Virus record (IMG/VR): IMGVR_UViG_3300011444_000001
Location: 1-51,884 of that record
Origin: a virus
Lineage: Duplodnaviria; Caudoviricetes
Length of the DNA: 51,884 nt
Strand: one strand, 5' to 3'
Part shown: one piece after another, positions 14,656 to 43,692 of the stretch
How positions within the stretch are numbered: position 1 is the stretch's first letter
Layout: each line of letters begins with the position of its first letter
The notes under the pieces: model-generated
What the model saw: only the letters and a program-made list of their open reading frames with translations
Database searches by the model: none
Told to the model about the DNA's origin: nothing
Position numbers and translations under genes: made by a program

Positions 14656-14685
14656 TTGACAAAACACGACGCGAGCCGCTAATAT
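14656..14685 (+). promoter_or_regulatory. sigma70-type promoter
   Basis: TTGACA-18 nt-TAATAT. Confidence 0.55.
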
Positions 14686-14966: not shown

Positions 14967-14995
14967 TTGACAATTCAACGGTGAGGTGTTAGCTT
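14967..14995 (+). promoter_or_regulatory. sigma70-type promoter, extended -10
   Basis: TTGACA-17 nt-TAGCTT with TG at the extended position. Confidence 0.65.
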
Positions 14996-15467: not shown

Positions 15468-15496
15468 TTGACAGGAACCGTTGACCGTGGTATATT
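15468..15496 (+). promoter_or_regulatory. Strong sigma70-type promoter
   Basis: TTGACA-17 nt-TATATT with TG extension. Confidence 0.8.
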
Positions 15497-16219: not shown

Positions 16220-16390
16220 ATGGCACTGCAATATACTCGCAAGGAAGCTGAGGACTTGTTAGAGTCCTACGTCACCGCGATCCAAGCTATGGATCAGATG
16301 ACGAGCGAGGGTGCCGAGGAAGCTCTCTGGCGGAAGATCAAGCTGGTGAAAGAAGTGATACTCGACATGATGACGAGGCCATTATGTTGA
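16220..16390 (+). CDS. Hypothetical protein
   Basis: MALQYTRKEAEDLL... after AAGGGGG; overlaps the next gene. Confidence 0.5.
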   Translation: MALQYTRKEAEDLLESYVTAIQAMDQMTSEGAEEALWRKIKLVKEVILDMMTRPLC

Positions 16391-16836
16391 GGAATACGAC
16401 TAACCTGCCTGATAGGTTAATCGCGATTGCTGCGGCATTTGCGATGCCTCCTGACTGTCCTCCAGTCGCTTCAATCGTCATCAAGAACAAGCGGAGGGGG
16501 AAGGTTGCAGGACAGTGGGGCTGGTACTATCACGAGGACAATCAGGTTGTCGTGATTGTACCCAGGAAGATCTCGCATGAACACAAGCTCAAACTCAAAT
16601 TCACTAAGAAACAAGTCTCATTCTCGTCACGAGCAGAGTTCCTCGTGTCGGTCATCGCTCACGAGCTTCGCCATGTCTGGCAATTCCAACACTGGAATAC
16701 GCCAGCGATGAAGTGGAGATTGGAACGAACTCGCGTGGGTAAGTACGCGAGGGAGGTGGACGCTGAGATGTATCAAACAGCGATCCTTCGGAAGTGGCAA
16801 CACGAGGTAATGCCTCTAATCAAGGAGGTAGCGTGA
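16384..16836 (+). CDS. Putative zinc metallopeptidase (SprT/IrrE-like HExxH)
   Basis: VIAHELRHVWQ plus downstream EVDAE. Confidence 0.65.
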   Translation: MLRNTTNLPDRLIAIAAAFAMPPDCPPVASIVIKNKRRGKVAGQWGWYYHEDNQVVVIVPRKISHEHKLKLKFTKKQVSFSSRAEFLVSVIAHELRHVWQFQHWNTPAMKWRLERTRVGKYAREVDAEMYQTAILRKWQHEVMPLIKEVA

Positions 16837-17750: not shown

Positions 17751-17779
17751 TTGACAAAACCCGTCCACCATGTTATATT
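17751..17779 (+). promoter_or_regulatory. Strong sigma70-type promoter
   Basis: TTGACA-17 nt-TATATT with TG extension. Confidence 0.8.
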
Positions 17780-17789
17780 ACGGGTGTAA

Positions 17790-17930
17790 ATATCGCGTTG
17801 GGAGCCCTATCAAGGGTACGCGCAAGTGGTCGTAACACGGCCTGAGCATCCTCATCCCCTCCCAGGATGGCCGTGAAACTAGACAGGCCGAACGCTCAGA
17901 TAAGGCCAACTGTCAAGTCCTGGGAGGGAC
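17790..17930 (+). promoter_or_regulatory. Structured 5' leader with an anti-SD alternative pairing
   Basis: CCCTCCCAGGA (17857-67) is the perfect complement of TCCTGGGAGGG (17918-28, contains the SD); competing stems CACGGCC/GGCCGTG and ATCCT/AGGAT. Confidence 0.6.
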
Positions 17931-17939
17931 TATTCCACC

Positions 17940-18542
17940 ATGCCAGAACCTGAGGACGGGAGCCAGCGTAAGCTGACGCTCTCTGAGGTGGAGGAGGCTG
18001 TGCATGGGTTTGCGCTGCAATACGCTAAGGCGCACACCTCGTTGCCAGTCACTGCGTTCAGGGTGTTTCTCTGGCCGGGCTCGTTCATCTGTAAGGTGAC
18101 ACCAGGCCCGACGGCGAGAATCATTCTGGGTAACTCAGCGATGCCCGGCGGAGCAGATTTCCCAGATGCGTTGAAGAGAGCCATCGACCGCGTCTGGACG
18201 CAACGGCTGTACAGCACGATGGCTGTCGAGCTTGTCGCGCATGTCTACGAGCGCGATGCAAGTTGGAGGCGCTGGTTGAAGGAGCGGTACAATTTCGACA
18301 GGGAGCTGATCCCGCATATGCTAGGCGATGAGGAGCTGTCGGTGCGGCACGTCGAGCGCATCGAGGTAATTCACAAGCCTACCGGCTTGCGCGAAGTGAT
18401 CGAGGTGGAGCCTGGCGCGAAGCGGAGCACATTCGCCGCGCAGGACATTGCCAAGATGCGCCTCGCTCGGCGCGTCCACGAGCAGCACCTCGCAGAACAG
18501 CAGAAGAAGGACAACGAGATCCCTTTTCCAGTGAGCGCGTGA
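17940..18542 (+). CDS. Protein with a C-terminal peptide release factor domain-3-like region lacking GGQ
   Basis: ERIEVIHKPTGL...RSTFAAQDIAKMRLARRVH aligns by eye with RF1 [12 protein letters not shown]...[19 protein letters not shown]; the GGQ loop is absent. Confidence 0.55.
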   Translation: MPEPEDGSQRKLTLSEVEEAVHGFALQYAKAHTSLPVTAFRVFLWPGSFICKVTPGPTARIILGNSAMPGGADFPDALKRAIDRVWTQRLYSTMAVELVAHVYERDASWRRWLKERYNFDRELIPHMLGDEELSVRHVERIEVIHKPTGLREVIEVEPGAKRSTFAAQDIAKMRLARRVHEQHLAEQQKKDNEIPFPVSA

Positions 18543-18552
18543 ACTAAGAACT

Positions 18553-18774
18553 GGGGCCTCGGTTCTCCCTCGTTGAGCGCCCAGGGCTGAGGCTTAAACA
18601 GAGAAGTGTAGGGTCAAGCGAGGCAGCGGCTTCTCTGCCCAGGAAAATTGTCTGGGGAGCAATGGGGCTGTTCTCCAACAACCTGTCCCCCGACTGGCTA
18701 GGTCGAGATCATTGGCACAGAGCTGATGGCTCGTAAAGTGGTTGCCACGACAACCATTATCCTACGCCAGCTCC
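18553..18774 (+). ncRNA. Putative structured RNA (series of hairpins)
   Basis: GCCTCGG/CTGAGGC, CAGAGAAG/CTTCTCTG, CCCAG/CTGGG, GAGCTG/CAGCTC, TGGTTG/CAACCA; no ORF of 60 aa or more. Confidence 0.5.
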
Positions 18775-18864
18775 GACGCGAACAGCACTAGCTGATGGGA
18801 ATGTATCTCATGTTTACGGCCATCTTCATGAGGTATATGGCAGGTTCGATTCCTGCTCGCGTCT
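18775..18864 (+). ncRNA. tRNA-like RNA without a canonical anticodon arm
   Basis: Acceptor GACGCGA/TCGCGTC; canonical T-arm GCAGG-TTCGATT-CCTGC; CAGC/GCTG hairpin; 11-bp stem with a 14-nt loop. Confidence 0.75.
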
Positions 18865-18865
18865 C

Positions 18866-19056
18866 TCGACCGTCACGCATGCAAAGGTACAGCTAACTGT
18901 CACCGGGCTTCAAGCCTCCCTCCTTCGGGTACGGAGCAGTCATAGGTGATTAGGCCGCGATAACATCTAGAGCCCTGTTAGCAGCCTGCGAAGCCCGCTA
19001 CGCCCGAGGCTTACCAGCGCAACATATCGGGCAGGGAACAAGGCTGGGGCGGTCGA
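18866..19056 (+). ncRNA. Putative ~190-nt multi-stem ncRNA
   Basis: Closing TCGACCGTC/GGCGGTCGA; inner CGGGCTTC/GAAGCCCG, GCCCGA/TCGGGC and TAACA/TGTTA. Confidence 0.6.
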
Positions 19057-19060
19057 ACCT

Positions 19061-19149
19061 GGCGAGGTGGCTGACTATCGGCAAGTCACGACGGACTGTA
19101 AATCCGTTGCTCTGTTGAGCGTTGAGGGTTCGACTCCCTCCCTTAGCCA
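19061..19149 (+). tRNA. tRNA-Tyr(GTA), atypical acceptor stem and D region
   Basis: Anticodon arm ACGGA-CTGTAAA-TCCGT; long variable arm GCTC/GAGC; T-arm GAGGG-TTCGACT-CCCTC; acceptor GGCGAGG/CCTTAGCC needs a bulged A. Confidence 0.8.
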
Positions 19150-19978: not shown

Positions 19979-20007
19979 TTGACAAATCGACCCGAATGTG
20001 TTATATT
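19979..20007 (+). promoter_or_regulatory. Strong sigma70-type promoter for the helicase
   Basis: TTGACA-17 nt-TATATT with TG extension. Confidence 0.8.
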
Positions 20008-25596: not shown

Positions 25597-25924
25597 GTAC
25601 CTGCGGATGGTGCGCGATCACTACGCCCAGGCGAAGGAAGACTTCTTCGTTCGGAATGGTACTGCGCATTGGGTTCCACCTCACATCATGCGTGGCATGG
25701 ACCGCTACGTATTGATGCGAGTACAGCCCGGCAGTTTCCTCACAGCTGTGTTGGAGAATGATATGAAGGGTGCTGTGTTGAATGCCGACGAACAAGCCTT
25801 GACAAATCTGCACGCTGTGGTTATATTCGTGGTCAACGTGCTACCCGCAGACATCCAGGGTTCCCAAGACAAGGTCAACGCTTGGCTCGCAGGGGGCAAT
25901 GACGCAACGAGCAACGGTACGTAA
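25553..25924 (+). CDS. Conserved phage hypothetical protein
   Basis: PGSFLTAVLEND...AD...GS motif. Confidence 0.6.
   Translation: MRIMPSSSQSSLNPEYLRMVRDHYAQAKEDFFVRNGTAHWVPPHIMRGMDRYVLMRVQPGSFLTAVLENDMKGAVLNADEQALTNLHAVVIFVVNVLPADIQGSQDKVNAWLAGGNDATSNGT
25799..25827 (+). promoter_or_regulatory. sigma70-type promoter inside a CDS, upstream of the RHH-like gene
   Basis: TTGACA-17 nt-TATATT. Confidence 0.65.
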
Positions 25925-30754: not shown

Positions 30755-31207
30755 GTGTTCCAGCTTTACGAGAACAAGGTCGCCATCATCCCGCTCTTCG
30801 ATCGTGATATGACCGCGAGCGGTCTCCTTTACATTCCAGAAATCGCGAAGGAGAGGTGCGACCAAGGAATCGTGAAGTACATCGGTCCACAATGTAAGTG
30901 GCTCAAGCCAGGGGACTACGTCCTGTTCTCCGGTTACGTGGGACAGGCGATCCACGACGAGCATGAAGGAACGCTCCTTATCTTTCGTGAGGAATTCGCT
31001 GCAGCTATCATCGCAGACGAGAGGGTAGATAGCACAGACATTCCCGGCCTCTATTTCAAGGGCAAAGACGGTGTCTTCTTTGAGGCCAACTACGAATACG
31101 CGATGGCCCTCATCGCCAAGGCATTACAGGAGTCCTCATGGAATGCAACTCTGAAGTCGAGGGAGCAGGAGATGCACCGTCCGATAGGAGCGGCGACGCA
31201 TAGATGA
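30755..31207 (+). CDS. groES: GroES-like co-chaperonin with a C-terminal extension
   Basis: TASGLLYIPEIAKER...GIVKYIGP...LKPGDYVLFSGYVG. Confidence 0.85.
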   Translation: MFQLYENKVAIIPLFDRDMTASGLLYIPEIAKERCDQGIVKYIGPQCKWLKPGDYVLFSGYVGQAIHDEHEGTLLIFREEFAAAIIADERVDSTDIPGLYFKGKDGVFFEANYEYAMALIAKALQESSWNATLKSREQEMHRPIGAATHR

Positions 31208-31506
31208 GCGTCTACGTCGATGATATGTACGCGGAGTTCAGTAACATGTTGATGTGTCACATGATTGCCGACACGCATAAGGAGCTGGTCGATATGGCCA
31301 GTAAGATCGGCGTGCAGTTGAAGTGGATACAGAAAGCAGGGACGCGCAGAGAGCATTTTGACATTGCCAAGTCCAAGCGAGCCTTGGCCGTTAAAGCGGG
31401 AGCCATCGAAATCACTTGGCTTGATTGTGGGAGACGAGAGCTGGAACGAAGGCACACGCCTGAAGATCAGTGGCAGCGTGAATACAACGAAAGAGAAGTA
31501 TCCTGA
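31204..31506 (+). CDS. DUF4031-family protein
   Basis: MSVYVDD...MCHMIADT..EL...IG...W.Q...HFDI. Confidence 0.8.
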   Translation: MSVYVDDMYAEFSNMLMCHMIADTHKELVDMASKIGVQLKWIQKAGTRREHFDIAKSKRALAVKAGAIEITWLDCGRRELERRHTPEDQWQREYNEREVS

Positions 31507-31580
31507 TGTGGTGTTCCAAGGAGGGCTGCAAGATAACTAGTCCTCACGATCATTACCCCGGCTTACGGGAGCTTTGGAAC

Positions 31581-31811
31581 ATGGAACAGCCAACGAAGAG
31601 AGAGCAGGACATACTCAAATCCTTCACGTACAACAAGTCTGAGCCGGCGGACTACGACAAGTACGTGTCTGTTGGACAAGCACTGGAGAACGCGGCACTT
31701 GAGATCATCAATACTGCTCCCGACTGCGCAGACAGAACCACGGCCCTTCGCTGTTTGCGTGAAGCTCGCATGTGGGCCAATGCTGCTATCAACTTGAAGG
31801 GACTCGTATAA
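31581..31811 (+). CDS. Acb2/Tad1-like helical hairpin, candidate immune-signal sponge
   Basis: FTY...APDCADRTTALRCLREARMWANAAI. Confidence 0.6.
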   Translation: MEQPTKREQDILKSFTYNKSEPADYDKYVSVGQALENAALEIINTAPDCADRTTALRCLREARMWANAAINLKGLV

Positions 31812-32254
31812 TGCCACCGAAAGACAAGGCCGAGACGCACGCGAGCGTGTACAAGGGCAAGCACAAGTACCAAGAGGTCGCGGAGTTCGTGTCCATCGCA
31901 ATGTCTGTCTGGGATCGTCAACACGGAATGATCTCCAATTCCTGGGACGCCCTCAACGCAACCGAGAAGGCTGCCGCCGTGCAGCGCGCCAAGGACTATG
32001 ACGAGGGCAAGCTCGCCAGCAAGGAGGAGAACGAGGACGATCGTGAGAAAATGGAGTTTACCCTCTACGATCTGCTCCTCGACTCGGGCATCGACGACAA
32101 GGAAGATGACATCATCAAGGAGTTGAACAAGTACCCGCAGGGCCAGACTCCTGCTGTTCCGGTGTCCTCCGATCCGAACGACAAGCCGCCAGCTCCGATC
32201 CTGCCCAGTACGGCAGGTGAAGGAACCGTCACCAAGCCGACAATCGTCAAGTGA
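31811..32254 (+). CDS. Acidic hypothetical protein
   Basis: TAATG coupling; strong codon bias. Confidence 0.6.
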   Translation: MPPKDKAETHASVYKGKHKYQEVAEFVSIAMSVWDRQHGMISNSWDALNATEKAAAVQRAKDYDEGKLASKEENEDDREKMEFTLYDLLLDSGIDDKEDDIIKELNKYPQGQTPAVPVSSDPNDKPPAPILPSTAGEGTVTKPTIVK

Positions 32255-33582
32255 TCATTCACGTTGATCGGGTCGAGGTCAGGGAGCGAATCCGCGAGGA
32301 ACTCGGTAAGGAAGAGACCGAGGAACTCATGGCTAGCTTCCTGGCCTTAGGCCAGTTACAACCAATCATCGTCCGTCCCGGAGACGATGGTAAGTTCATC
32401 CTAGTCGCAGGGGAGCGTCGTCTCGAAGGTGCGAGGCGGCTGGCCGAGAAGCAGCAGGGCATCAAGGGCTACGGTACTAACATGATCTGGGCCGAGCTTC
32501 GTGAGAGTCAACAGCCTCATGTCATGCTCCAGATCGAGTTCGATGAGAACATGAAGCGGAAGGACTTCACATATGTCGAGAAAGCGCGCTTCATCCGCAA
32601 GTTCCACGAGCAAATGCAAGCGACAGCGAAAGAAGGAGGAGGAGAGTGGACGGCAGAGCTTACGGCTGTTAGCCTCCGCCTTTCTCCAGCTTCCATTAGT
32701 CACTATCTTCGGATCGAAGATGCTATCAAAAACGATCCGGGAGTAGCAAAAGCACAGACGCTGACTGCCGCTGTCAAGCGGATGAAAACGAACGAGAAGC
32801 TGAAGAACAGGATGACGGAGGTGAAGGCACATGCGACCGAGGCATACAAGCAAGCCGAGGAATGCGCCCGACTCGGTGACGCACATGTACTCGTTAAAGA
32901 ACTGCCCGATTCCTCCGTGGATCTTGTTAACTTTGACCCCCCGTGGGGCGATGATACAGGACATAAGTCCAACCAAAACCACGAGGGTTTTGATGATGAT
33001 ACGGAGACCAGTGACAAGGTTATCAACGGTCTCCTGCCCGAACTGTTCCGTGTTCTTAAGCCTGATCGCTTTATCATCTTTTGGTACCGAGCCTGGGCTT
33101 ACACAGATATGTGCTCTCGTCTGGAGTCAGTGGGATTCTCGCTTAAATTTGGACGAACCCCCTGCATCTGGTTCAAGCCCGACAAGGTGAGCGATCAGAA
33201 CCGCTTTCCTGAGAAGATGCTCAATGACGTATACGAAACTTTCCTCATCGCTCGTAAGGGTGATCCCGTCTACCACCAACACGGAGGAGGGAAGAATGTT
33301 TTCCCCTATAATCGTGTGCCGGTGGCTGCGCTCATACACCCGACGGAGAAGCCTCTCGACCTGTGCGATGATCTTGTCAAGCTCTGTACTGTTCCGGGAG
33401 AACTCATACTCGACCCAACAGCAGGCTCTTTCTCTTTCATTCACTCCGCTCTGCGGAACGGACGTAAGGGGATGGGTTGGGAATTGAGCGAGACAAGCTA
33501 CAACCGTGGTGTCACTCGTATGGCTGAATACCTCAAGATTGAAAGGAAGGTGGAACTTGTCACTAACACAAGCGGAGCGTGA
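32251..33582 (+). CDS. ParB-like N-terminal domain + HTH fused to an amino-DNA methyltransferase (N6/N4, beta class)
   Basis: GQLQPIIV, LVAGERRL, ENMKRKD; HTH WTAELTAVSLRLSPASISHYL; DPPW, HPTEKP, LDPTAGS. Confidence 0.88.
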   Translation: MIIHVDRVEVRERIREELGKEETEELMASFLALGQLQPIIVRPGDDGKFILVAGERRLEGARRLAEKQQGIKGYGTNMIWAELRESQQPHVMLQIEFDENMKRKDFTYVEKARFIRKFHEQMQATAKEGGGEWTAELTAVSLRLSPASISHYLRIEDAIKNDPGVAKAQTLTAAVKRMKTNEKLKNRMTEVKAHATEAYKQAEECARLGDAHVLVKELPDSSVDLVNFDPPWGDDTGHKSNQNHEGFDDDTETSDKVINGLLPELFRVLKPDRFIIFWYRAWAYTDMCSRLESVGFSLKFGRTPCIWFKPDKVSDQNRFPEKMLNDVYETFLIARKGDPVYHQHGGGKNVFPYNRVPVAALIHPTEKPLDLCDDLVKLCTVPGELILDPTAGSFSFIHSALRNGRKGMGWELSETSYNRGVTRMAEYLKIERKVELVTNTSGA

Positions 33583-33732: not shown

Positions 33733-34098
33733 GTGAAGCTTCCGAAGATCAAGCTCCAAACGGTCAAGCTCCCGCCGATGAAATGGGAGCGCACGCGGTA
33801 CTTCGAAGGGATGCCGTGTCCCAAGTATATGGGTTACGCCTATCGTGACTTTAACCGAGACGTGATCGTGTACTGGACTGTACCGATCAATCTTATCATA
33901 GGCGCGTGGCGCTGGTTCATACAAAGAGTTCGTTTCGGCTTCGCCAACGGACTTGAGTTTCATGTCAGCACTGCGATCTTGCGTGAGCGGAATCGTTGTA
34001 TCGGTATTGTGGAGAAGCACTACATTTCTAATGCTGATCCGAGATACATTGATGCCCTCGAACAAGCCATGAACGAGATCGCGGGGCCGCGTAAGTGA
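33733..34098 (+). CDS. Hypothetical protein
   Basis: GTGA-coupled ORF. Confidence 0.5.
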   Translation: MKLPKIKLQTVKLPPMKWERTRYFEGMPCPKYMGYAYRDFNRDVIVYWTVPINLIIGAWRWFIQRVRFGFANGLEFHVSTAILRERNRCIGIVEKHYISNADPRYIDALEQAMNEIAGPRK

Positions 34099-35882
34099 CT
34101 ATAGGCACGGTACGAGTCCCCAACGAGGGTCCAAAGGATGCTCGAATCTATCTCGTTGGTGAAGGACCAGGTGCAGATGAGGCTGATGCCGGACGGCCGT
34201 TTGTTGGTGTCTCGGGTCTTAAACTTAGAGGTTGTCTTGCTCGGAACGGAGTTGTTGAAGATACCGTTCGATTCTGCAATCTGGTCCAGTACCGTCCGCC
34301 TAATAACAAGTTCGAAGCAATCCTCCGTACTCGTGAGTTGGAAGCCGGAATCGAGGAGCTTGCTGCTGACATTAGAGAGTTTCGTCCTAATGTCGTCGCC
34401 GCGCTTGGAAATTGGCCCCTCTATTACCTCACTGGTCGAAGAGGCAAAAAAGCAGTTGGCACAGGTATTGGAAAGTGGCGAGGATCAATTCTCCCTTGTA
34501 TTCTCCCCGGCTGTGAGGGAGTGAAAGTTGTCGCCTCATATCATCCCGCCTACGTGGTCAGACAACCGACCGCCTATCCTATATTCGATACTGATATTAA
34601 GCGGGTCGTTCATGATGCCGCCTTCCCCGAACTCAGGTATCCTGAGCGCAACCTCGTACTGGACCCGCGCGGAGAGTTACTGGACGAATGGACCGAGCGT
34701 CTTTGCTCAGCTGAATTCCTTGCCGTTGACATTGAGACTGTTAAGAGGACAGCACATATCCTCTGTGTCGGCTTCAGCCCTGATCCTTTTACGTCTGTTG
34801 TCATCTCACATTCAAGCACTGACTTTGCTCGGCGAGAAGCCATTGATCGGATTCTAAGGAGTCCGGCCAAGAAAGTGTTTCACAATGGGGGAACGTTCGA
34901 CATTCCAATCCTGGAGATCAACGACTATGAAGTCGTCAACTATTTCTGGGATACGATGGTGGCTCAACATGTTATGTGGGGCGAACTCCCGAAGTCTCTG
35001 GATTACCTGGCATCTGTGCATACTCGACAGCCATATTATAAGACTGCGGGCCGTGCTGAGATTCCCGACGATGCTAAGGGATGGTCAGAGAAGTTTGACC
35101 GTAACGCTCTCTATGAATACAACGGAACAGATACAAGCGTTACTGCCGAAGTATTTTTGGCGCAGCAAGAGGACTTCAGGACAGGTCCTTGGCAATGGCA
35201 GCGCGTCTTCGATTTCGAGATGTCCGAGTTTGAAGCTGCCGCAACCATCAGCAAAACTGGAATGATGATCGACTTGAAGCGCCGTGAAATCCTTAAGCGG
35301 GCGCTCCAAGCCAAGTGGGCCATCATCCAATTCGTGTTGAACAATCTTGTCAAGTTGAAGGTGAACGTTAACAGTCCAAAGCAGATGAGAACATTACTCT
35401 ATGACAAGGATAAACTTGGCCTACCACCGCGTAAGGATCATGAGGGTAACCTGACGACAGATGAAGATGCTATCGTCAGTCTCATTGCCTTCGCCAAAGA
35501 TAAGCTCAACAAGCTCAAGCCAGGTGGCAACGCCAATGCGTTTTGGCAACTTCGAGTTGATGCACTCAATTCTATACTTCTCATACGTGGTATACGAAAA
35601 CTCCTGTCATCCTACATCAATATCAGAATATCTGATGACGGACGTTTGCGAGCAACTTTTAAGCCTGTATCAACCGAGACAGGGCGCTGGGCTTGTGCCG
35701 TTTACTTCGATGGTACAGGCACAAATGCTCAAACGTTTCCTCGTGAAGTGTTTGAGCTTAAGAACTACGAGGACGATCCATTCTTGAAAGAGATGCTACC
35801 ATACATTCTTGAGAGTGAGGCGGAGGATGTGGGTATCGAAATTGATGAGGCTGTTGAAACGGAAGAGGCAGTCGCAGTTTAA
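34095..35882 (+). CDS. polA: DNA polymerase A, N-terminal part: family-4 UDG-like domain, 3'-5' exonuclease and thumb
   Basis: VGEGPG..E...GRPFVG and YHPAY; DIET, HN...FD, YNGTD; NVNSPKQ; TETGRW...NAQTFP. Confidence 0.9.
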   Translation: MTIGTVRVPNEGPKDARIYLVGEGPGADEADAGRPFVGVSGLKLRGCLARNGVVEDTVRFCNLVQYRPPNNKFEAILRTRELEAGIEELAADIREFRPNVVAALGNWPLYYLTGRRGKKAVGTGIGKWRGSILPCILPGCEGVKVVASYHPAYVVRQPTAYPIFDTDIKRVVHDAAFPELRYPERNLVLDPRGELLDEWTERLCSAEFLAVDIETVKRTAHILCVGFSPDPFTSVVISHSSTDFARREAIDRILRSPAKKVFHNGGTFDIPILEINDYEVVNYFWDTMVAQHVMWGELPKSLDYLASVHTRQPYYKTAGRAEIPDDAKGWSEKFDRNALYEYNGTDTSVTAEVFLAQQEDFRTGPWQWQRVFDFEMSEFEAAATISKTGMMIDLKRREILKRALQAKWAIIQFVLNNLVKLKVNVNSPKQMRTLLYDKDKLGLPPRKDHEGNLTTDEDAIVSLIAFAKDKLNKLKPGGNANAFWQLRVDALNSILLIRGIRKLLSSYINIRISDDGRLRATFKPVSTETGRWACAVYFDGTGTNAQTFPREVFELKNYEDDPFLKEMLPYILESEAEDVGIEIDEAVETEEAVAV

Positions 35883-36115: not shown

Positions 36116-36300
36116 TGCCAGTTCGTATTCCTATCAGCGCCGCCCGACGTGTAGCTGATCTACACGAATTGCGTCAGGTCATCATCATAGCCTGGGATGG
36201 CGAGCGCACACACATCGTTACCTATGGACAGACCAGGCAAGAGTGCAAGATGGCTGCCGAAGGTGGCGAGCGCATAGCTAAGTTTCTGGAATTGAAGTGA
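36112..36300 (+). CDS. Small hypothetical protein between the polA parts
   Basis: IPISAARRVA...QVIIIAWD...THIVTYG; GTGA overlaps at both ends. Confidence 0.6.
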   Translation: MMPVRIPISAARRVADLHELRQVIIIAWDGERTHIVTYGQTRQECKMAAEGGERIAKFLELK

Positions 36301-37178
36301 TCGACCGCGCACAGTCTCACGAAAAGATACCAATTCGGAGCATGATTATATGTCCCGAGGACTGTTACCTTGTCAACTTCGATCTAGCTCAAGCAGAATC
36401 ATGGGTAGTTGCATACCTCGCGAACGAACCTACGATGAAGTACGTGTTGGCAAATGGTGATCTCCACCGTGAAACAGCACAGCGAGCGTTCGAGAGTTAC
36501 ACGGATGAACAATGGGAAAGGATCATATCAAGTGAGCGAAAAGCCCGCCGATACACAGGTAAGCGATATAATCACGCAACAGCATATCGAATGGGTCCTG
36601 GGCGAGCTTGCGAAGTTATTAACAAAGACTCAGACAAACCGCCCTTTGTTACGGTTACTCATGCGGAATCGAAAGTCTTTTACAAGAAGTGGCATGACTA
36701 CTACCATATTCAAGGTTGGTGGGATGAGATTGAATATCTGCTTAACCAAACGCGGACTCTTGTCACACCTTACGATCGTCTCAGATATTTCTTTGCCCCC
36801 TGGGGAAACGAACTCTTTAGAGAAGCCACAGCCTACGTCCCGCAGTCAACCGTAGGCGATCACATGAACGGTGCTGTTCAGGTTGGTGTGAATGGTCCGG
36901 GTGGCGTAATCGAAGTACACAAGCAATTTGTGGAGCCGGGACTAATCAAGATTATTAATCAGTCTCACGACTCCATCCTGTGCGAGATTCCGCGTGACTC
37001 AGTCTTGACTTTAGCGCCGGAAATAGTTAAATTGCTTCTTCGCCCGTTGGTCATTAAAGACGAGGAGTTCACAATTCCTGTCGATTGCGAGATTGGCTTC
37101 AGGTGGGGAGAATTGGAAGAGCAGCATCGCCTGCTTGGATCATACGACATCGAATGGAAACTACCGGAGGCGGCATGA
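36297..37178 (+). CDS. polA: DNA polymerase A, C-terminal catalytic part
   Basis: Motif A FDLAQAE, motif B RYTGKRYNHATAY, motif C QSHDSI. Confidence 0.92.
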   Translation: MIDRAQSHEKIPIRSMIICPEDCYLVNFDLAQAESWVVAYLANEPTMKYVLANGDLHRETAQRAFESYTDEQWERIISSERKARRYTGKRYNHATAYRMGPGRACEVINKDSDKPPFVTVTHAESKVFYKKWHDYYHIQGWWDEIEYLLNQTRTLVTPYDRLRYFFAPWGNELFREATAYVPQSTVGDHMNGAVQVGVNGPGGVIEVHKQFVEPGLIKIINQSHDSILCEIPRDSVLTLAPEIVKLLLRPLVIKDEEFTIPVDCEIGFRWGELEEQHRLLGSYDIEWKLPEAA

Positions 37179-38977: not shown

Positions 38978-39194
38978 ACTCAACATCGAGTATCTGTGTC
39001 CTCGTCCTGGATTAAGGCTTACATATCCGAACGATGACATCGCTGGACTATCCAAAGAGCAGATCATGGAAATGTCAGACCTGCTCTTTGCGACATACGA
39101 CAAGAAGTTGGCAGAGTTGAAAGCTACTCCGTCACTATACCTCCCGGATTCAACAGGGACTCGTTCTCTGTCGAACGAACCCCAAAAGCCCTGA
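38967..39194 (+). CDS. Hypothetical protein, last gene of the rightward block
   Basis: Overlaps the previous stop and converges on the late block. Confidence 0.45.
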   Translation: MVNELNIEYLCPRPGLRLTYPNDDIAGLSKEQIMEMSDLLFATYDKKLAELKATPSLYLPDSTGTRSLSNEPQKP

Positions 39195-42100
39195 GCCATG
39201 CACTCACCGGAGAGTCACCGTTCTCGGCCATCGTTGCACCTTCGTAAATATCACGAAGCAGGAACGATCCTGGAACTCCTAGCATCGGCAATTGAGTTAA
39301 CGCCCGAGTGGCGTCACGCTCTGCTGATGGATATGCTTGTCCCGCTCCAATCGCAGCAGCAAGCAGACCGAACGCTGGACCTCCGCGGAATAGTGACGAG
39401 CCGGGCACACCAAGAACAATCTCCGTCGCAGCCTTCTGGTATTCAGCAGTTTCCTCTTCATCGTAGCTATCGGTGGCTGCCGCTAGATGCTGACCGGCGC
39501 TAACGAGTGGCGCAGCAGTCGGGAGATACCATGAGTTCAGATTCAGGCCCAAGGCCGCTGATGCCAGAGCAAGACTTCCTTGAGATATTCCAAACCGAAC
39601 TGCAACTCTTGTGCGTTCTGCTCGCGTTCCTCGTGATAGCATTCTTGCTAGTGTTGTCCGTGCCCATACAGGCCAGTTCCCGAATTGTCCAAAGAGTCGT
39701 CCGGTATTTGTTCCCCAACCAGCAGGATGATTAGCTAGGCCGAAGGTAGAAACAGTCTCGAAGGAAGTTGCTCTTCCGAGGAAGTCGGCTGCGTCTCTGA
39801 ACTTTCCTTCCGTGACAAGCTTATCAAAATATGCAGCAACAGGAGGATCGTAAGAATTAAGAAAAAGATTGTCATACGCTCTAGACTTGGCACCGTCACC
39901 CGTACCGTATTCGAGGTTCGCGAGCTTGTTGAGTTCGGCCATAGCTCTAGTTGAGCTTTCGAGGTAGCTCGCCGCGTGCGCCCATTGGTAGACATTGTGC
40001 TGGAGCCCCCACTTAATGCCAGCGTCCGCAGTCTTTTGGATCGCCTCACGGAACGGCTGAGTACGAGCCGCGATTGAATTCTGCAAGCGTTCTTGTGCAG
40101 TGAGAACCGAGATAGGACCGAGGGTTGGGATCGTACCTTCTCTTGCCATCGCTGCTGATGCACTCTCTCCAATCTCAGACTTAGCGATGATTCCAGCCTG
40201 TTCCAACTCCTGTGGTGTAACTCTCGACATCATAGTATAGAGATTACTGAGGCGTTCAGCACCGAACCGTGTGTAGAAAGTCGAGGAGAAGTTATGGAAA
40301 TCTCGAATCCCTTGCACAGGACGGAAGCCAATCGTCGCAGACGACGAGAGCGATAGCCAGGTATTCACGATGTCTCGGCGCACAGATACATCTGACTTTG
40401 CACCCATACGATCGAGAACACCATTGATGATCTTCTCCGCGAATGATGTTGAGGCGTGTGGAATGCCACGGAGTTCGTTGACGTAGTTCTCCGTGAGCAA
40501 ACGCTTGACGTAGTCACCGTGCGCAGGATCAGTCATCTGCGCTGTCGTGTGGTTTATGTACTCGTAGGCGTTGTCGAGTGCTGCCTTCGTGAACCGATTG
40601 GAGTAACCAGAGTTGATGTACCGTGCGAGGACGTTGATCGGATCACGATCAAACTCCGACATCTCTCCAGTCCTCAACAATTCACTTGTAAAGACTGGAG
40701 CACCGTCACGCCCTGCGATGATCTCGTCGTTCTTGAAATTACGCAGATGTGCGAAGTATCCACCGAGTCGCTGCTCGTCTGGAATATCGAACGTATCTGC
40801 GAGATCGTTGAAGTGACTCCCAACTTCATCCAGCACCTTCCGCATCTTCACACCAGCTTCGGTGTCTGCGGCGGGAAAGTTCTTAGCGACGTAATCAGCC
40901 TGGTTCGTGTGTCCATCCATCACCGCTTCCGCAAGACGGAGGATGCCATAGATCGAGAGTTCGCCGGGCTTATTGATGCGTTCAACCTCGCCAATAATCC
41001 TCGCAGCCTCGATATGAGCTTCGTCCATCGCGAGCGATGCTTGGAGTTTGTGGACTGCTTCAGCTTTGTCAGCTTCTGGTAGCCGATAGAAACGTGGATT
41101 GTTCTCCAGCTTCTTCAGGCCGCGGAAATATTGCCAGGTCTTAGGAATGTCGATCTGATTCTCGATGAACCATTGTGCGCCAGAGATTTCACGAGGATTA
41201 AATCCACGAGTAAAGAGCCCGCCAGGCTTAATCATATCGTCAGGGCTGAACGTCTCACGCGCTATTGTGACTTGCTCCAGCTGCTCCGGGGACAATCCTC
41301 GTGCAAGTCTCGAAGTCTCTGCCAGTCGCACCATATCTCCATGCATGTTCGCATACTTGCGGAGATGTGCGATCTGCAGTGGATTGTAGACCTGCGTGAA
41401 GAACTCTGTCCCAAGCTGATTGTCCAACGAGATCATGACCTGCCGCATCCCTGTGAACTTTGTCCCAATAGAAGAGACGTTGAATGCGTCACGCAGATCA
41501 CCAAACCAGCCATTGCTATGTGGATTCCACGCTGATGTATGTGGTCCATTCGGAGGAGGCGGAACAGGAATCAGACCACGGTTCACACCATCGGGAATAC
41601 CATTTGGCGTGAAATCTGCGCCATGCATCTCGACAGTGTTCTGGACAAACTGGAGCGCTTCCTCTGGAGAGTGAGCCAGCTCCAGGTATGATCCGTGTTC
41701 CGAATCACGAACGATCAGCGCACCATTCTGACGCTCGATATACATGCCGTTCGATGTGGCGGCATCCACCAGATCATTGGCAGTCTTTTCACGGTGACGC
41801 GAAGATTCAGCAACGAGCTTCCGGTACTGTGCTCTCTCCTTCGGATCGAGAGCTTCATTACGGAGCATCTCGCCATAGCGATCAGACAAGAAGCGATGAA
41901 GGGCAGAGGTCACTCTGGGATTCAACTGCCTGTTGGCGACGTAGCCAGAGACGAGATCCGAGAACTTACCCTCCGGGATGCCTCCACCAGTTCGCTTGTC
42001 CACCCAATCGGTGAAGGCCCGAAACAGTTCTTTCTGTGCTTGTGGCTTGTCGAAGTGATATGAATTGATCGCCATGTCAGGACCGTGGCGAAGCTGATCC

Positions 42101-43692
42101 CACGGCACCTCAACGATGTGACCATTGGTGTCCATGATCTTGTGATGTGTGAGGTTTCCTTTCGCATCGATCACAGGATCAACGTAGTGGTAATCGTTCC
42201 CGAGGAAGCCGACGACTTCGTGAGGAAAGTAACCACTAACTTGGAATGTCGAGATGGCGTGCTTGCGGGCAGCTTCAGCCTCCAGCACACTTGTTGGATG
42301 CTCCGTTGGAATCTCAATATCAGGAACCCCGAACGCTATATCCTTGAGTCCATCCGGGCGCTCGTGAATTACGCTCGATTCACTTGGACGAAACTTCCTC
42401 ACACCCTGCACAACGATTGGCCCACCATGACTCACGTGCTCCGCAGCTGCCGCGAGGTCATCAGCGTTGCGCAGAGCAAGGAACGTGTTGACTCCGTTCT
42501 CCAGCGAGATACCGGAGGCAGCTTGATACTGACGAAGCAGCGACAAGTTACTGGCATCCACGATGGATTGTGAGATAGGACCAATCTTCTTACTCCGAAT
42601 TCGTCCCATCACACCTTCGAAGGCAACACCAGCTGGCAGCGCCATGAGAGCGTATGTCGCCATCATGTTGCGGCTTTCTTCAGGTGTCGTACCAGAGAAC
42701 GCTCCGGTCGTTGCACCACCGACAGCACCCTCAGCTACACCAGTCGCAACCTTGCCCGGAATTGTGGACTCGACACGTATGGCTTTGGGTAAGGTCGCGG
42801 CAACTTGTTCAAGTTCTCCGATTGGAGCTGCGATACCTGCTCTTTCAGACGCAGCAACACCGCCTCGCAGAAGCTCTCGACCGATGCGTAGTTCCTTGAA
42901 CACATTACCAGCGGCTCCTCCTGCGAGGAGCCCGGCGTAATTAGCGATGACTTCACGTTGGTACTGTGCCCTTTCTTCTGGGAGGAGATAGCCAGAGCCA
43001 GGCTCAAGCTGGTCGATCAAGAGTGCGGCTGGTTGCCTCACCAAATCTACGAAGAATTTGGGAAGCCCTACAGCCAGCTCCTTCGCTGTCTCGAGAGGAT
43101 GCGCGAACGGAGTACCAACGTGGAATCCAGATGAATTGTTGTTGTTAAACTCGATGAGCGAGCGGTTCGTGAAGACACGCATGCTCCCAAGCTTCTGCTG
43201 GAGTCCAGCGATACCTGTTGGCGTTGCTCTGATTTCCGCCGTATTCTCCAGGTCCGCGGCGATTTTTTCTGGTGAATGTGCATATGCTTCTGCCTCTCGC
43301 CGCAAACGGTCGGCACGCCCCTCTCCTGGCCGCGTACCGGGCACCAGCGCGCTTGTTGAGACAGCAGCGCCCGTAACGTCGCGCCCGGTCGGTTCGGGGT
43401 TCAGGAAGGCTTGTACGTCGAACTTGGGTGCCTCTACCGGGGGTTGCCGTGACGCAAACACGGAGGCGTCATACGGCGCAGGTTCGGGCTGTCCAACGCG
43501 AGCGACGGCGTCTGCATGAATATCGTTAATCAGAGCTTGGCCTGTCTCCTGGATTGTCTTTTTCCCAGAAGAAAGGTTCTTAACCAAGTCGAGATTCAAC
43601 GGACCAGGAGCAGCTGGCGTTTCCTCGTCTTTAGTCGATAAAGATGAGTCGCCGCGTAGTTTGCTGAAGTCGAAGTTAAGTGGCCCAGTCAT
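39124..43692 (-). CDS. Large internal virion / DNA ejection protein
   Basis: 1522 aa, largely helical; last and largest of three graded ORFs after the tail genes. Confidence 0.7.
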   Translation of the reverse strand: MTGPLNFDFSKLRGDSSLSTKDEETPAAPGPLNLDLVKNLSSGKKTIQETGQALINDIHADAVARVGQPEPAPYDASVFASRQPPVEAPKFDVQAFLNPEPTGRDVTGAAVSTSALVPGTRPGEGRADRLRREAEAYAHSPEKIAADLENTAEIRATPTGIAGLQQKLGSMRVFTNRSLIEFNNNNSSGFHVGTPFAHPLETAKELAVGLPKFFVDLVRQPAALLIDQLEPGSGYLLPEERAQYQREVIANYAGLLAGGAAGNVFKELRIGRELLRGGVAASERAGIAAPIGELEQVAATLPKAIRVESTIPGKVATGVAEGAVGGATTGAFSGTTPEESRNMMATYALMALPAGVAFEGVMGRIRSKKIGPISQSIVDASNLSLLRQYQAASGISLENGVNTFLALRNADDLAAAAEHVSHGGPIVVQGVRKFRPSESSVIHERPDGLKDIAFGVPDIEIPTEHPTSVLEAEAARKHAISTFQVSGYFPHEVVGFLGNDYHYVDPVIDAKGNLTHHKIMDTNGHIVEVPWDQLRHGPDMAINSYHFDKPQAQKELFRAFTDWVDKRTGGGIPEGKFSDLVSGYVANRQLNPRVTSALHRFLSDRYGEMLRNEALDPKERAQYRKLVAESSRHREKTANDLVDAATSNGMYIERQNGALIVRDSEHGSYLELAHSPEEALQFVQNTVEMHGADFTPNGIPDGVNRGLIPVPPPPNGPHTSAWNPHSNGWFGDLRDAFNVSSIGTKFTGMRQVMISLDNQLGTEFFTQVYNPLQIAHLRKYANMHGDMVRLAETSRLARGLSPEQLEQVTIARETFSPDDMIKPGGLFTRGFNPREISGAQWFIENQIDIPKTWQYFRGLKKLENNPRFYRLPEADKAEAVHKLQASLAMDEAHIEAARIIGEVERINKPGELSIYGILRLAEAVMDGHTNQADYVAKNFPAADTEAGVKMRKVLDEVGSHFNDLADTFDIPDEQRLGGYFAHLRNFKNDEIIAGRDGAPVFTSELLRTGEMSEFDRDPINVLARYINSGYSNRFTKAALDNAYEYINHTTAQMTDPAHGDYVKRLLTENYVNELRGIPHASTSFAEKIINGVLDRMGAKSDVSVRRDIVNTWLSLSSSATIGFRPVQGIRDFHNFSSTFYTRFGAERLSNLYTMMSRVTPQELEQAGIIAKSEIGESASAAMAREGTIPTLGPISVLTAQERLQNSIAARTQPFREAIQKTADAGIKWGLQHNVYQWAHAASYLESSTRAMAELNKLANLEYGTGDGAKSRAYDNLFLNSYDPPVAAYFDKLVTEGKFRDAADFLGRATSFETVSTFGLANHPAGWGTNTGRLFGQFGNWPVWARTTLARMLSRGTRAERTRVAVRFGISQGSLALASAALGLNLNSWYLPTAAPLVSAGQHLAAATDSYDEEETAEYQKAATEIVLGVPGSSLFRGGPAFGLLAAAIGAGQAYPSAERDATRALTQLPMLGVPGSFLLRDIYEGATMAENGDSPVSAWLRAFGVRSTENESLLNPGGIVTE
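43624..43648. promoter_or_regulatory. 25-bp dyad motif within the 5' end of the ejection gene
   Basis: CTCGTC TTTAG TCG ATAAA GATGAG. Confidence 0.7.

Follow-up and report, generated by a model that had tools for sequence, protein, structure and literature searches.

The window analyzed here is the whole of virus record IMGVR_UViG_3300011444_000001, a complete genome of 51,884 bases that carries direct terminal repeats and belongs to a lytic-looking, uncultured tailed phage. Our subject is the plus-strand open reading frame (ORF) at 17940..18542, whose boundaries had been correctly given in an initial annotation, together with the predicted expression signals and the tRNA gene that surround it (Table 1). 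The ORF is real and conserved, and a C-terminal module of its product, consisting of a beta-hairpin and a long basic helix, probably shares ancestry with domain 3 of bacterial release factors (RFs), of which it would represent the half that follows the catalytic GGQ loop. The loop is absent from the family, and the product may be pictured as a two-domain pseudo-enzyme in which a pseudo-zincin (residues 12-93) is joined to the RF-derived module (residues ~134-192).

Table 1. Features of the target gene, its product and its surroundings. Positions are those of the window unless a related locus is named.
Feature	Position	Strand	Description or basis
Target coding sequence	17940..18542	+	200 residues; uncharacterised phage protein family
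N-terminal domain	17973..18218 (residues 12-93)	+	Helix, three strands, helix; zincin/SprT-like without metal-binding motif
Connecting helix	18234..18290 (residues 99-117)	+	DSSP on models
C-terminal module	18339..18515 (residues ~134-192)	+	Beta-hairpin 139-144, 151-156 and long basic helix 164-192
C-terminal tail, possible docking peptide	18507..18539	+	KDNxxPFPxSA in close clade; acidic/aromatic tails in others (alignments)
Shine-Dalgarno-like GGGAGGG	17922..17928	+	11 nucleotides (nt) ahead of ATG; seen directly in the sequence
Sigma-70-type promoter, predicted	17751..17779	+	TTGACA-17 nt-TATATT, TG before -10; ~160 bp upstream of start codon
Six near-consensus sigma-70-type sites	14656-14685, 14967-14995, 15468-15496, 17751-17779, 19979-20007, 25799-25827	+	TTGACA, 16-18 nt, TAnnnT; several with TG before -10
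tRNA-Tyr (GTA), class II	19061..19148	+	Long variable arm; ARAGORN
tRNA-Tyr counterparts	L008 896-981; L010 2105-2190; L011 4669-4754		Conserved with the window tRNA

The protein belongs to a family known only from uncultured sources. A word-indexed search returned 20 homologues (49-90% identity, 176-207 residues), all of metagenomic origin and lacking a functional name. At E<=1e-3, an exhaustive profile search yielded 69 cluster representatives, which are 52-276 residues long, unnamed, and include no long fused forms. Two alignments were built from these sequences, one of 21 close members (A1) and one of 55 members (A2) that joins 54 of the 69 representatives to the window protein. The other 15 representatives, which were not included in A2, are fragments or have a best match that stops before the C-terminal domain; a hidden Markov model of that domain nevertheless matches 13 of them at E<=5.4e-4, including P0055, which is truncated inside the domain, while P0047, truncated ahead of the domain, reaches E 0.69 only. 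No relative was detectable by tblastn in 50,697 cultured-phage records, and the best PHROGs match of the protein had an E-value of 0.25. A Pfam match to DUF7195 (E 0.013, 15.7 bits against a cut-off of 27) was taken as noise because it was found in one of the 55 members. Even if the resemblance to RFs described below were convergent, the family is a widespread, well-folded and uncharacterised early phage protein.

The initial annotation had described the product as a look-alike of RF domain 3, quoting residues 128-189 beside a string from E. coli RF1 that proved exact and in which GGQ occupies RF1 233-235. The likeness holds for the half of the domain after the GGQ (strands beta2 and beta3 and helix alpha7, residues ~139-189 against RF1 243-288) and does not extend to domain 3 as a whole. 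A single register, in which residues ~139-190 lie opposite RF1 ~243-288, was obtained throughout, and it was agreed upon by Pfam, NCBIfam, a profile search of PDB sequences, hhalign, the structural alignments of VIA, and ESM Atlas. The beta2-beta3-alpha7 core is present in the RF register. Among 24,736 Pfam models, RF-1 (PF00472) matched the window protein in this register at 12.2 bits (E 0.18), which is under the gathering threshold of 35 bits, and among 18,950 NCBIfam models the sole match was PrfH (TIGR03072; E 0.12, 11.8 bits). A divergent member of the family, P0066, which is 25% identical to the window protein, matched PrfH with an E-value of 0.0039 (16.7 bits) and prfA with an E-value of 0.048. 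When 177,635 PDB sequences were searched with the 55-member profile, E. coli RF1 was the top match (E 0.07), PrfH was found at E 0.82, and five of the seven among the matches listed were from the RF family. The RF match in PDB sequences arose only with this larger profile; the 21-member profile gave no RF match there, and its top match was MDA5 (E 0.22).

Profile-profile comparison pointed to the same relationship. A template alignment of the four E. coli RF paralogues (A3) was aligned by hhalign to the whole family profile with a P-value of 0.0029 (probability 10.7%) and to its C-terminal slice with a score of 23.5 (P 4.6e-4, probability 33%). None of 200 column-shuffled RF alignments reached that score (mean 8.1, standard deviation 1.5, maximum 13.2), and the reversed template scored 7.9. 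When 101 E. coli ORFs of at least 100 codons were ranked by hhalign, RF1 was first (21.0) and RF2 second (17.7), against a median of 9.1 and a 95th percentile of 13.6. As single comparisons, BLASTP aligned residues 141-189 of the window protein with RF1 244-288 (16 of 49 identical, E 0.008) and gave an E-value of 0.001 for P0066 against RF1.

A template-free AlphaFold2 model built from the 55-member alignment had a mean predicted local distance difference test score (pLDDT) of 89.8 and a predicted template modelling (TM) score of 0.64, while a first model built from 21 members had a pLDDT of 77. The C-terminal part is modelled as two strands and a helix, and the protein ends eight residues past the helix. 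In an exhaustive VIA structural search of 48,161 chains, 14 of the best 50 rows cover the C-terminal part, five of them assorted, and in this region identity is 16-25% for the RF rows and 4-13% for every other row. In the structural alignments, chains of LptE/RlpB equal the RFs in Z at an identity of 4-6%; as the Pfam model LptE (PF04390) matched one of the 55 members at a noise-level E-value of 0.054, membership in that family was rejected, and LptE/RlpB are taken as look-alikes at the level of the modelled fold only. A structural search of ESM Atlas (7.7 million cluster representatives) returned, among the matches listed from the 30 nearest models, only RF-1/PCRF clusters, with TM scores of 0.32-0.36; for residues 118-200 alone, the TM scores by query were 0.77 and 0.66. 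One of the matched RF-1/PCRF clusters is 204 residues long and 53% viral.

An alternative reading of these results is that the resemblance is convergent, and that an unrelated, phage-specific fold with some early role has come to contain a common arrangement, an amphipathic basic helix preceded by a hairpin with a TG turn. A number of observations weigh against RF ancestry or in favor of this alternative. Every test falls short of significance and of any curated threshold. The RF-1 model matched only two of the 21 close members and two of the 55 diverse members at E<=10 (best E 0.095); the 11.8-16.7 bits scored against PrfH fall far below the NCBIfam equivalog cut-off of 166.65 bits; five of the seven family members scanned with NCBIfam had no RF match; and hhalign probabilities range from 5 to 33%. 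E. coli ArfB ranked eighth among the 101 ORFs (12.2) and out of register, and the PrfH frame of strain K-12 gave a P-value of 0.019 only. The match is confined to a sub-domain of ~45-55 residues whose beta-beta-alpha arrangement is common, and neither of the RF strands beta1 and beta4 can be made out. Foldseek searches gave no match at E<=0.001 in PDB for either model, nor any in BFVD, and the best RF row in PDB was 6gwt_v at rank 44 (E 1.4), so that the combination of AlphaFold and Foldseek proposed as a check produced no RF at a meaningful E-value in that database. The structural rows of ESM Atlas rest on the Atlas's own model, which has a pLDDT of 0.49 and is "under the bar"; they are not fully independent, since a fold from a language model may echo the same local sequence similarity, and the feature-based search of the Atlas gave no usable match. 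In addition, the P-values of single comparisons are optimistic because the comparison had been picked after the similarity was noticed, and the most RF-like residues, H145, P147 and R162-S163, are confined to the close clade.

Several of the results above nevertheless speak against convergence. The unbiased searches of Pfam, NCBIfam (for two members), PDB sequences and the Atlas all rank the RF family first and do so in one register, the RF rows stand apart from the remaining structural rows in their identity, none of the shuffled alignments attains the profile score, and RF1 and RF2 head the ranking of E. coli ORFs. We therefore consider convergence rather unlikely and descent of the module from RF domain 3 probable. 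Since every match is sub-threshold, the search for a significant profile or structural match to RF domain 3 has neither overturned the proposed resemblance nor cleanly confirmed it.

The residues that the initial annotation had listed as retained from RFs (HxPTG, RS and AxxxLxxRxH) are conserved in part. The TG turn and helix residues A171, L175 and R177 are found family-wide (T148 in 44, G149 in 49, A171 in 40, L175 in 49 and R177 in 41 of the 55 members), as is V179 (43 of 55). The histidine, the proline and the RS pair are clade-specific: position 145 is histidine in 18 members and aspartate in 33, and RS is not conserved. The missing GGQ was borne out more fully, as none of the 88 family proteins has a GGQ-like tripeptide in the corresponding region; three incidental GGQ-like tripeptides occur elsewhere in these proteins. 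The connector before beta2 has 17 or 19 residues in all 55 members. A clean excision of the loop with beta1 kept, as had been suggested, is not demonstrated by the alignments. The hhalign alignment with a 14-residue gap appeared only at a relaxed mact setting and with a posterior confidence of ~0, while at the default threshold only residues 139-185 (beta2-beta3-alpha7) align. BLASTP of P0066 against RF1 runs ungapped through the loop region, and the VIA alignments start within the loop (model residue 134 against RF1 234). The GGQ is absent, and these alignments do not distinguish deletion of the loop from its degeneration.

Because no family member has a GGQ loop, the protein cannot hydrolyse peptidyl-tRNA in the manner of an RF, and if the module descends from RFs, catalysis has almost certainly been lost. 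The absence of the loop also bears on the proposal that the protein is a decoy, either titrating the RF methyltransferase PrmC or deceiving defence systems that sense RFs. The glutamine of GGQ is the substrate of PrmC, and a PrmC decoy is unlikely given that the loop methylated by the enzyme is lacking in all 88 proteins. RF domains 1, 2 and 4 are likewise absent, and the protein has no match to a defence or anti-defence family in Pfam, PHROGs or NCBIfam (PADLOC was not searched). With a general likeness to RFs as the only point in its favor, we regard a decoy function as highly improbable.

The remainder of the protein had been described as an N-terminal domain of ~125 residues of no known kind. 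It appears to have a zincin/SprT-like fold that lacks HExxH: the VIA rows over this domain are zincins, with no RF row among them, and neither HExxH nor a related metal-binding motif occurs at the homologous position in the 88 family proteins. The only conserved histidine, glutamate or aspartate in the domain is E18 on helix 1. The domain differs from the minigluzincin, HtpX and SprT zincins in having neither HExxH nor conserved metal ligands. A putative metallopeptidase of 150 residues (DUF6782), in which the HELRH motif is intact, is encoded at 16384-16836 (+), two genes upstream of the target gene, a position conserved in four of five related loci. We considered whether the N-terminal domain might be a diverged paralogue of this neighbor and rejected the idea (best BLASTP E 7.1; hhalign score 12.7, P 0.15). 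As the domain has no conserved metal ligand and no similarity to the genuine zincin upstream, it is best described, with moderate confidence, as zincin-like and catalytically dead.

Both halves of the protein thus resemble hydrolase scaffolds that lack their catalytic parts, and for this reason the protein is treated here as a binder. The suggestion of a non-catalytic RF mimic holds insofar as the RF peptidyl-hydrolase (RF-PH) domain appears to persist, as a catalytically dead remnant, in the C-terminal ~55 residues, and is weakened by the sub-threshold scores. The retained elements are, in release factors, the scaffold that carries the GGQ loop and faces the rRNA of the large subunit, and the helix of the phage protein keeps conserved arginines. 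The reading that we favor, though tentatively, is that the protein is made early and, without any catalytic activity, binds RNA belonging to the translation apparatus. The contact made by the hairpin and helix might be with the 50S subunit, on its A-site/peptidyl-transferase side, or with the acceptor end of a tRNA. The pseudo-zincin domain and the conserved tail might hold a peptide or protein partner, and early in infection the complex might influence termination in the host, the rescue of ribosomes or the use of tRNAs. A translation-linked binding role of any kind should, overall, be viewed with some reserve. If such a role were correct, a conserved early phage family that places an RNA-facing hairpin and helix on a dead metallopeptidase fold would represent a new interaction between virus and host at the level of translation, and a compact case of two hydrolase scaffolds reused as binders.

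A more specific version of this mechanism is that the dead RF mimic plugs the A-site/peptidyl-transferase region of the 50S subunit or caps the acceptor end of a tRNA while the pseudo-zincin grips the nascent peptide or a partner. In this way it could block RF1/RF2, ArfB, PrfH or transfer-messenger RNA (tmRNA), or it could shield ribosomes during tRNA-targeting defence together with the adjacent tRNA-Tyr. We consider so detailed a scheme quite improbable as it stands. If it were true, a glutamine-less RF-PH domain of the bacterial type would be known for the first time from bacteria or phages.

A different possibility is that the RF-descended module now serves outside translation, exapted for a structural or interaction role, for example in an adaptor for replication or host takeover whose tail recruits a partner. 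The target gene lies in a conserved plus-strand early block leading to genes for a SNF2 helicase, a nuclease, an AAA_24 protein, a methylase and DNA polymerase, and the C-terminal tail, a possible docking peptide judging from the alignments, is conserved in the close clade as KDNxxPFPxSA and replaced by acidic/aromatic tails in other clades. Exaptation would also be in keeping with the survival of the RF domain as a fragment only, in which most RF-specific residues are not conserved family-wide, and with plant PrfB3, which is described as having quit termination entirely (PMC5897788). However, no sequence or fold link to replication factors was found in Pfam, PHROGs, NCBIfam, VIA or BFVD. The tail motif occurs on no other ORF of the phage, so that no shared docking partner is indicated, and the conserved basic helix (L175, R177, V179) occupies the position of RF alpha7 and suits RNA binding. 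On balance, a role of the module outside translation seems unlikely.

Compared with known proteins, the phage module departs from domain 3 of RF1 and RF2 (PF00472) in having no GGQ loop and neither a recognisable beta1 nor a recognisable post-helix strand, and the protein as a whole has none of RF domains 1, 2 and 4, the module being joined instead to a zincin-like domain. Also among the closest known systems are PrfH (TIGR03072) and, grouped with it, the half-viral, 204-residue "PCRF domain-containing" cluster of the Atlas. PrfH is described as a short homologue of RFs that acts together with RtcB and keeps both the catalytic glutamine and a domain of the codon-recognition type (PMC6514570). 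The top Atlas row prompted the idea that the whole phage protein is a degenerate short RF, with a PrfH-like domain 2 ahead of domain 3. This idea was rejected, as the N-terminal slice of the family scored 12.0 against RF1 in hhalign (P 0.31), and the extension over the N-terminal domain of PrfH, to which the phage N-domain has no similarity, carried a confidence of ~0. ArfB/YaeJ and ICT1 are likewise small proteins, composed of an RF-PH domain and a ribosome-anchoring tail (PMC6514570), but they retain GGQ, and E. coli ArfB is out of register with the phage family.

Precedents for RF derivatives that have lost the catalytic motif come from eukaryotic organelles. MRPS35 is described as a glutamine-less RF derivative with a structural role in the mitoribosome (PMC6514570), and plant PrfB3 as having lost SPF and GGQ and binding the petB 3' untranslated region (PMC5897788). 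Both resemble the role proposed for the phage protein in being RF-derived, in lacking the catalytic motif and in acting by binding; going by these descriptions, they differ from it in being organellar and in keeping most of the RF scaffold, whereas the phage protein has a sub-domain in a new architecture. A review describes RF1, RF2, ArfB and PrfH as all keeping the catalytic glutamine, and a mitochondrial ribosomal protein is the sole inactive version to which its main text refers (PMC6514570). The open-access literature searched gave no description of an RF-like phage protein without GGQ.

The target gene is preceded by a Shine-Dalgarno-like sequence and by a predicted sigma-70-type promoter that fits 11 of 12 consensus positions, and in three of the five related loci (L007, L010 and L011) the homologous gene has the same promoter pattern directly ahead of it. 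The window contains six sites of this type, all on the plus strand and between 14.6 and 25.8 kb, whereas 0.74 are expected and none of 100 shuffled sequences reached six. These plus-strand sites suggest that the early/replication block is transcribed by the host RNA polymerase, and consensus matches of this kind are what points to promoter function. The target would accordingly be predicted to be an early gene, read by the host polymerase from its own promoter. Between the target stop codon and the tRNA gene lie ~520 bp (18543-19060) in which there is no plus-strand ORF of at least 60 codons, no Rfam match and no terminator-like site.

A tRNA-Tyr gene is found ~120-520 bp downstream of the target gene in four of six phages, namely the window and three of the five related loci. 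The anticodon arm is invariant, and compensatory changes occur in six of 23 predicted pairs. No Rfam model matched the window at the gathering threshold; the best model for the phage tRNA-Tyr was tRNA-Sec at 35-38 bits (38 for the window), for which the gathering score is 47. A translation-related neighbor is suggestive context only for a protein with a possible link to translation, and two considerations count against reading more into it: L007 and L009 lack the gene, and the early regions of phages commonly carry tRNA genes. The L011 locus also carries a tRNA-Leu(TAG) at 1501-1576.

Gene order is conserved across the five related viral contigs, running from two small ORFs through the DUF6782 zincin, a small ORF, the target gene and a small ORF to the SNF2 helicase, and this synteny applies to the close clade. 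The plus-strand block of the window encodes the SNF2 helicase, a PD-(D/E)XK nuclease, AAA_24, a ParB-methylase and a two-part family A DNA polymerase, and the minus strand encodes an SU10-type portal and adaptor, a Mu gpT-like head protein and the large terminase. The methylase, at 32251-33582 (+), is a 443-residue protein in which an N6/N4 DNA methylase is fused to a ParB N-terminal domain. The polymerase is divided between two plus-strand ORFs ~415 bp apart, the first of which (34095-35882) fuses a domain of the uracil-DNA-glycosylase superfamily and a 3'-5' exonuclease to the start of the polymerase domain, with the remainder of that domain encoded by the second (36297-37178). Three successive small genes at 30755-31811 (+) encode a Cpn10/GroES-like protein (E 2.1e-6), a DUF4031 protein (E 2.2e-21) and an Acb2/Tad1 hairpin-domain protein (E 8.6e-7), the last from a family linked with sponges for cyclic-nucleotide immune signals. 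A 1,521-residue ORF at 39124-43692 (-), which has no Pfam or PHROGs match and lies amid unannotated minus-strand ORFs, presumably encodes a tail or injected protein.
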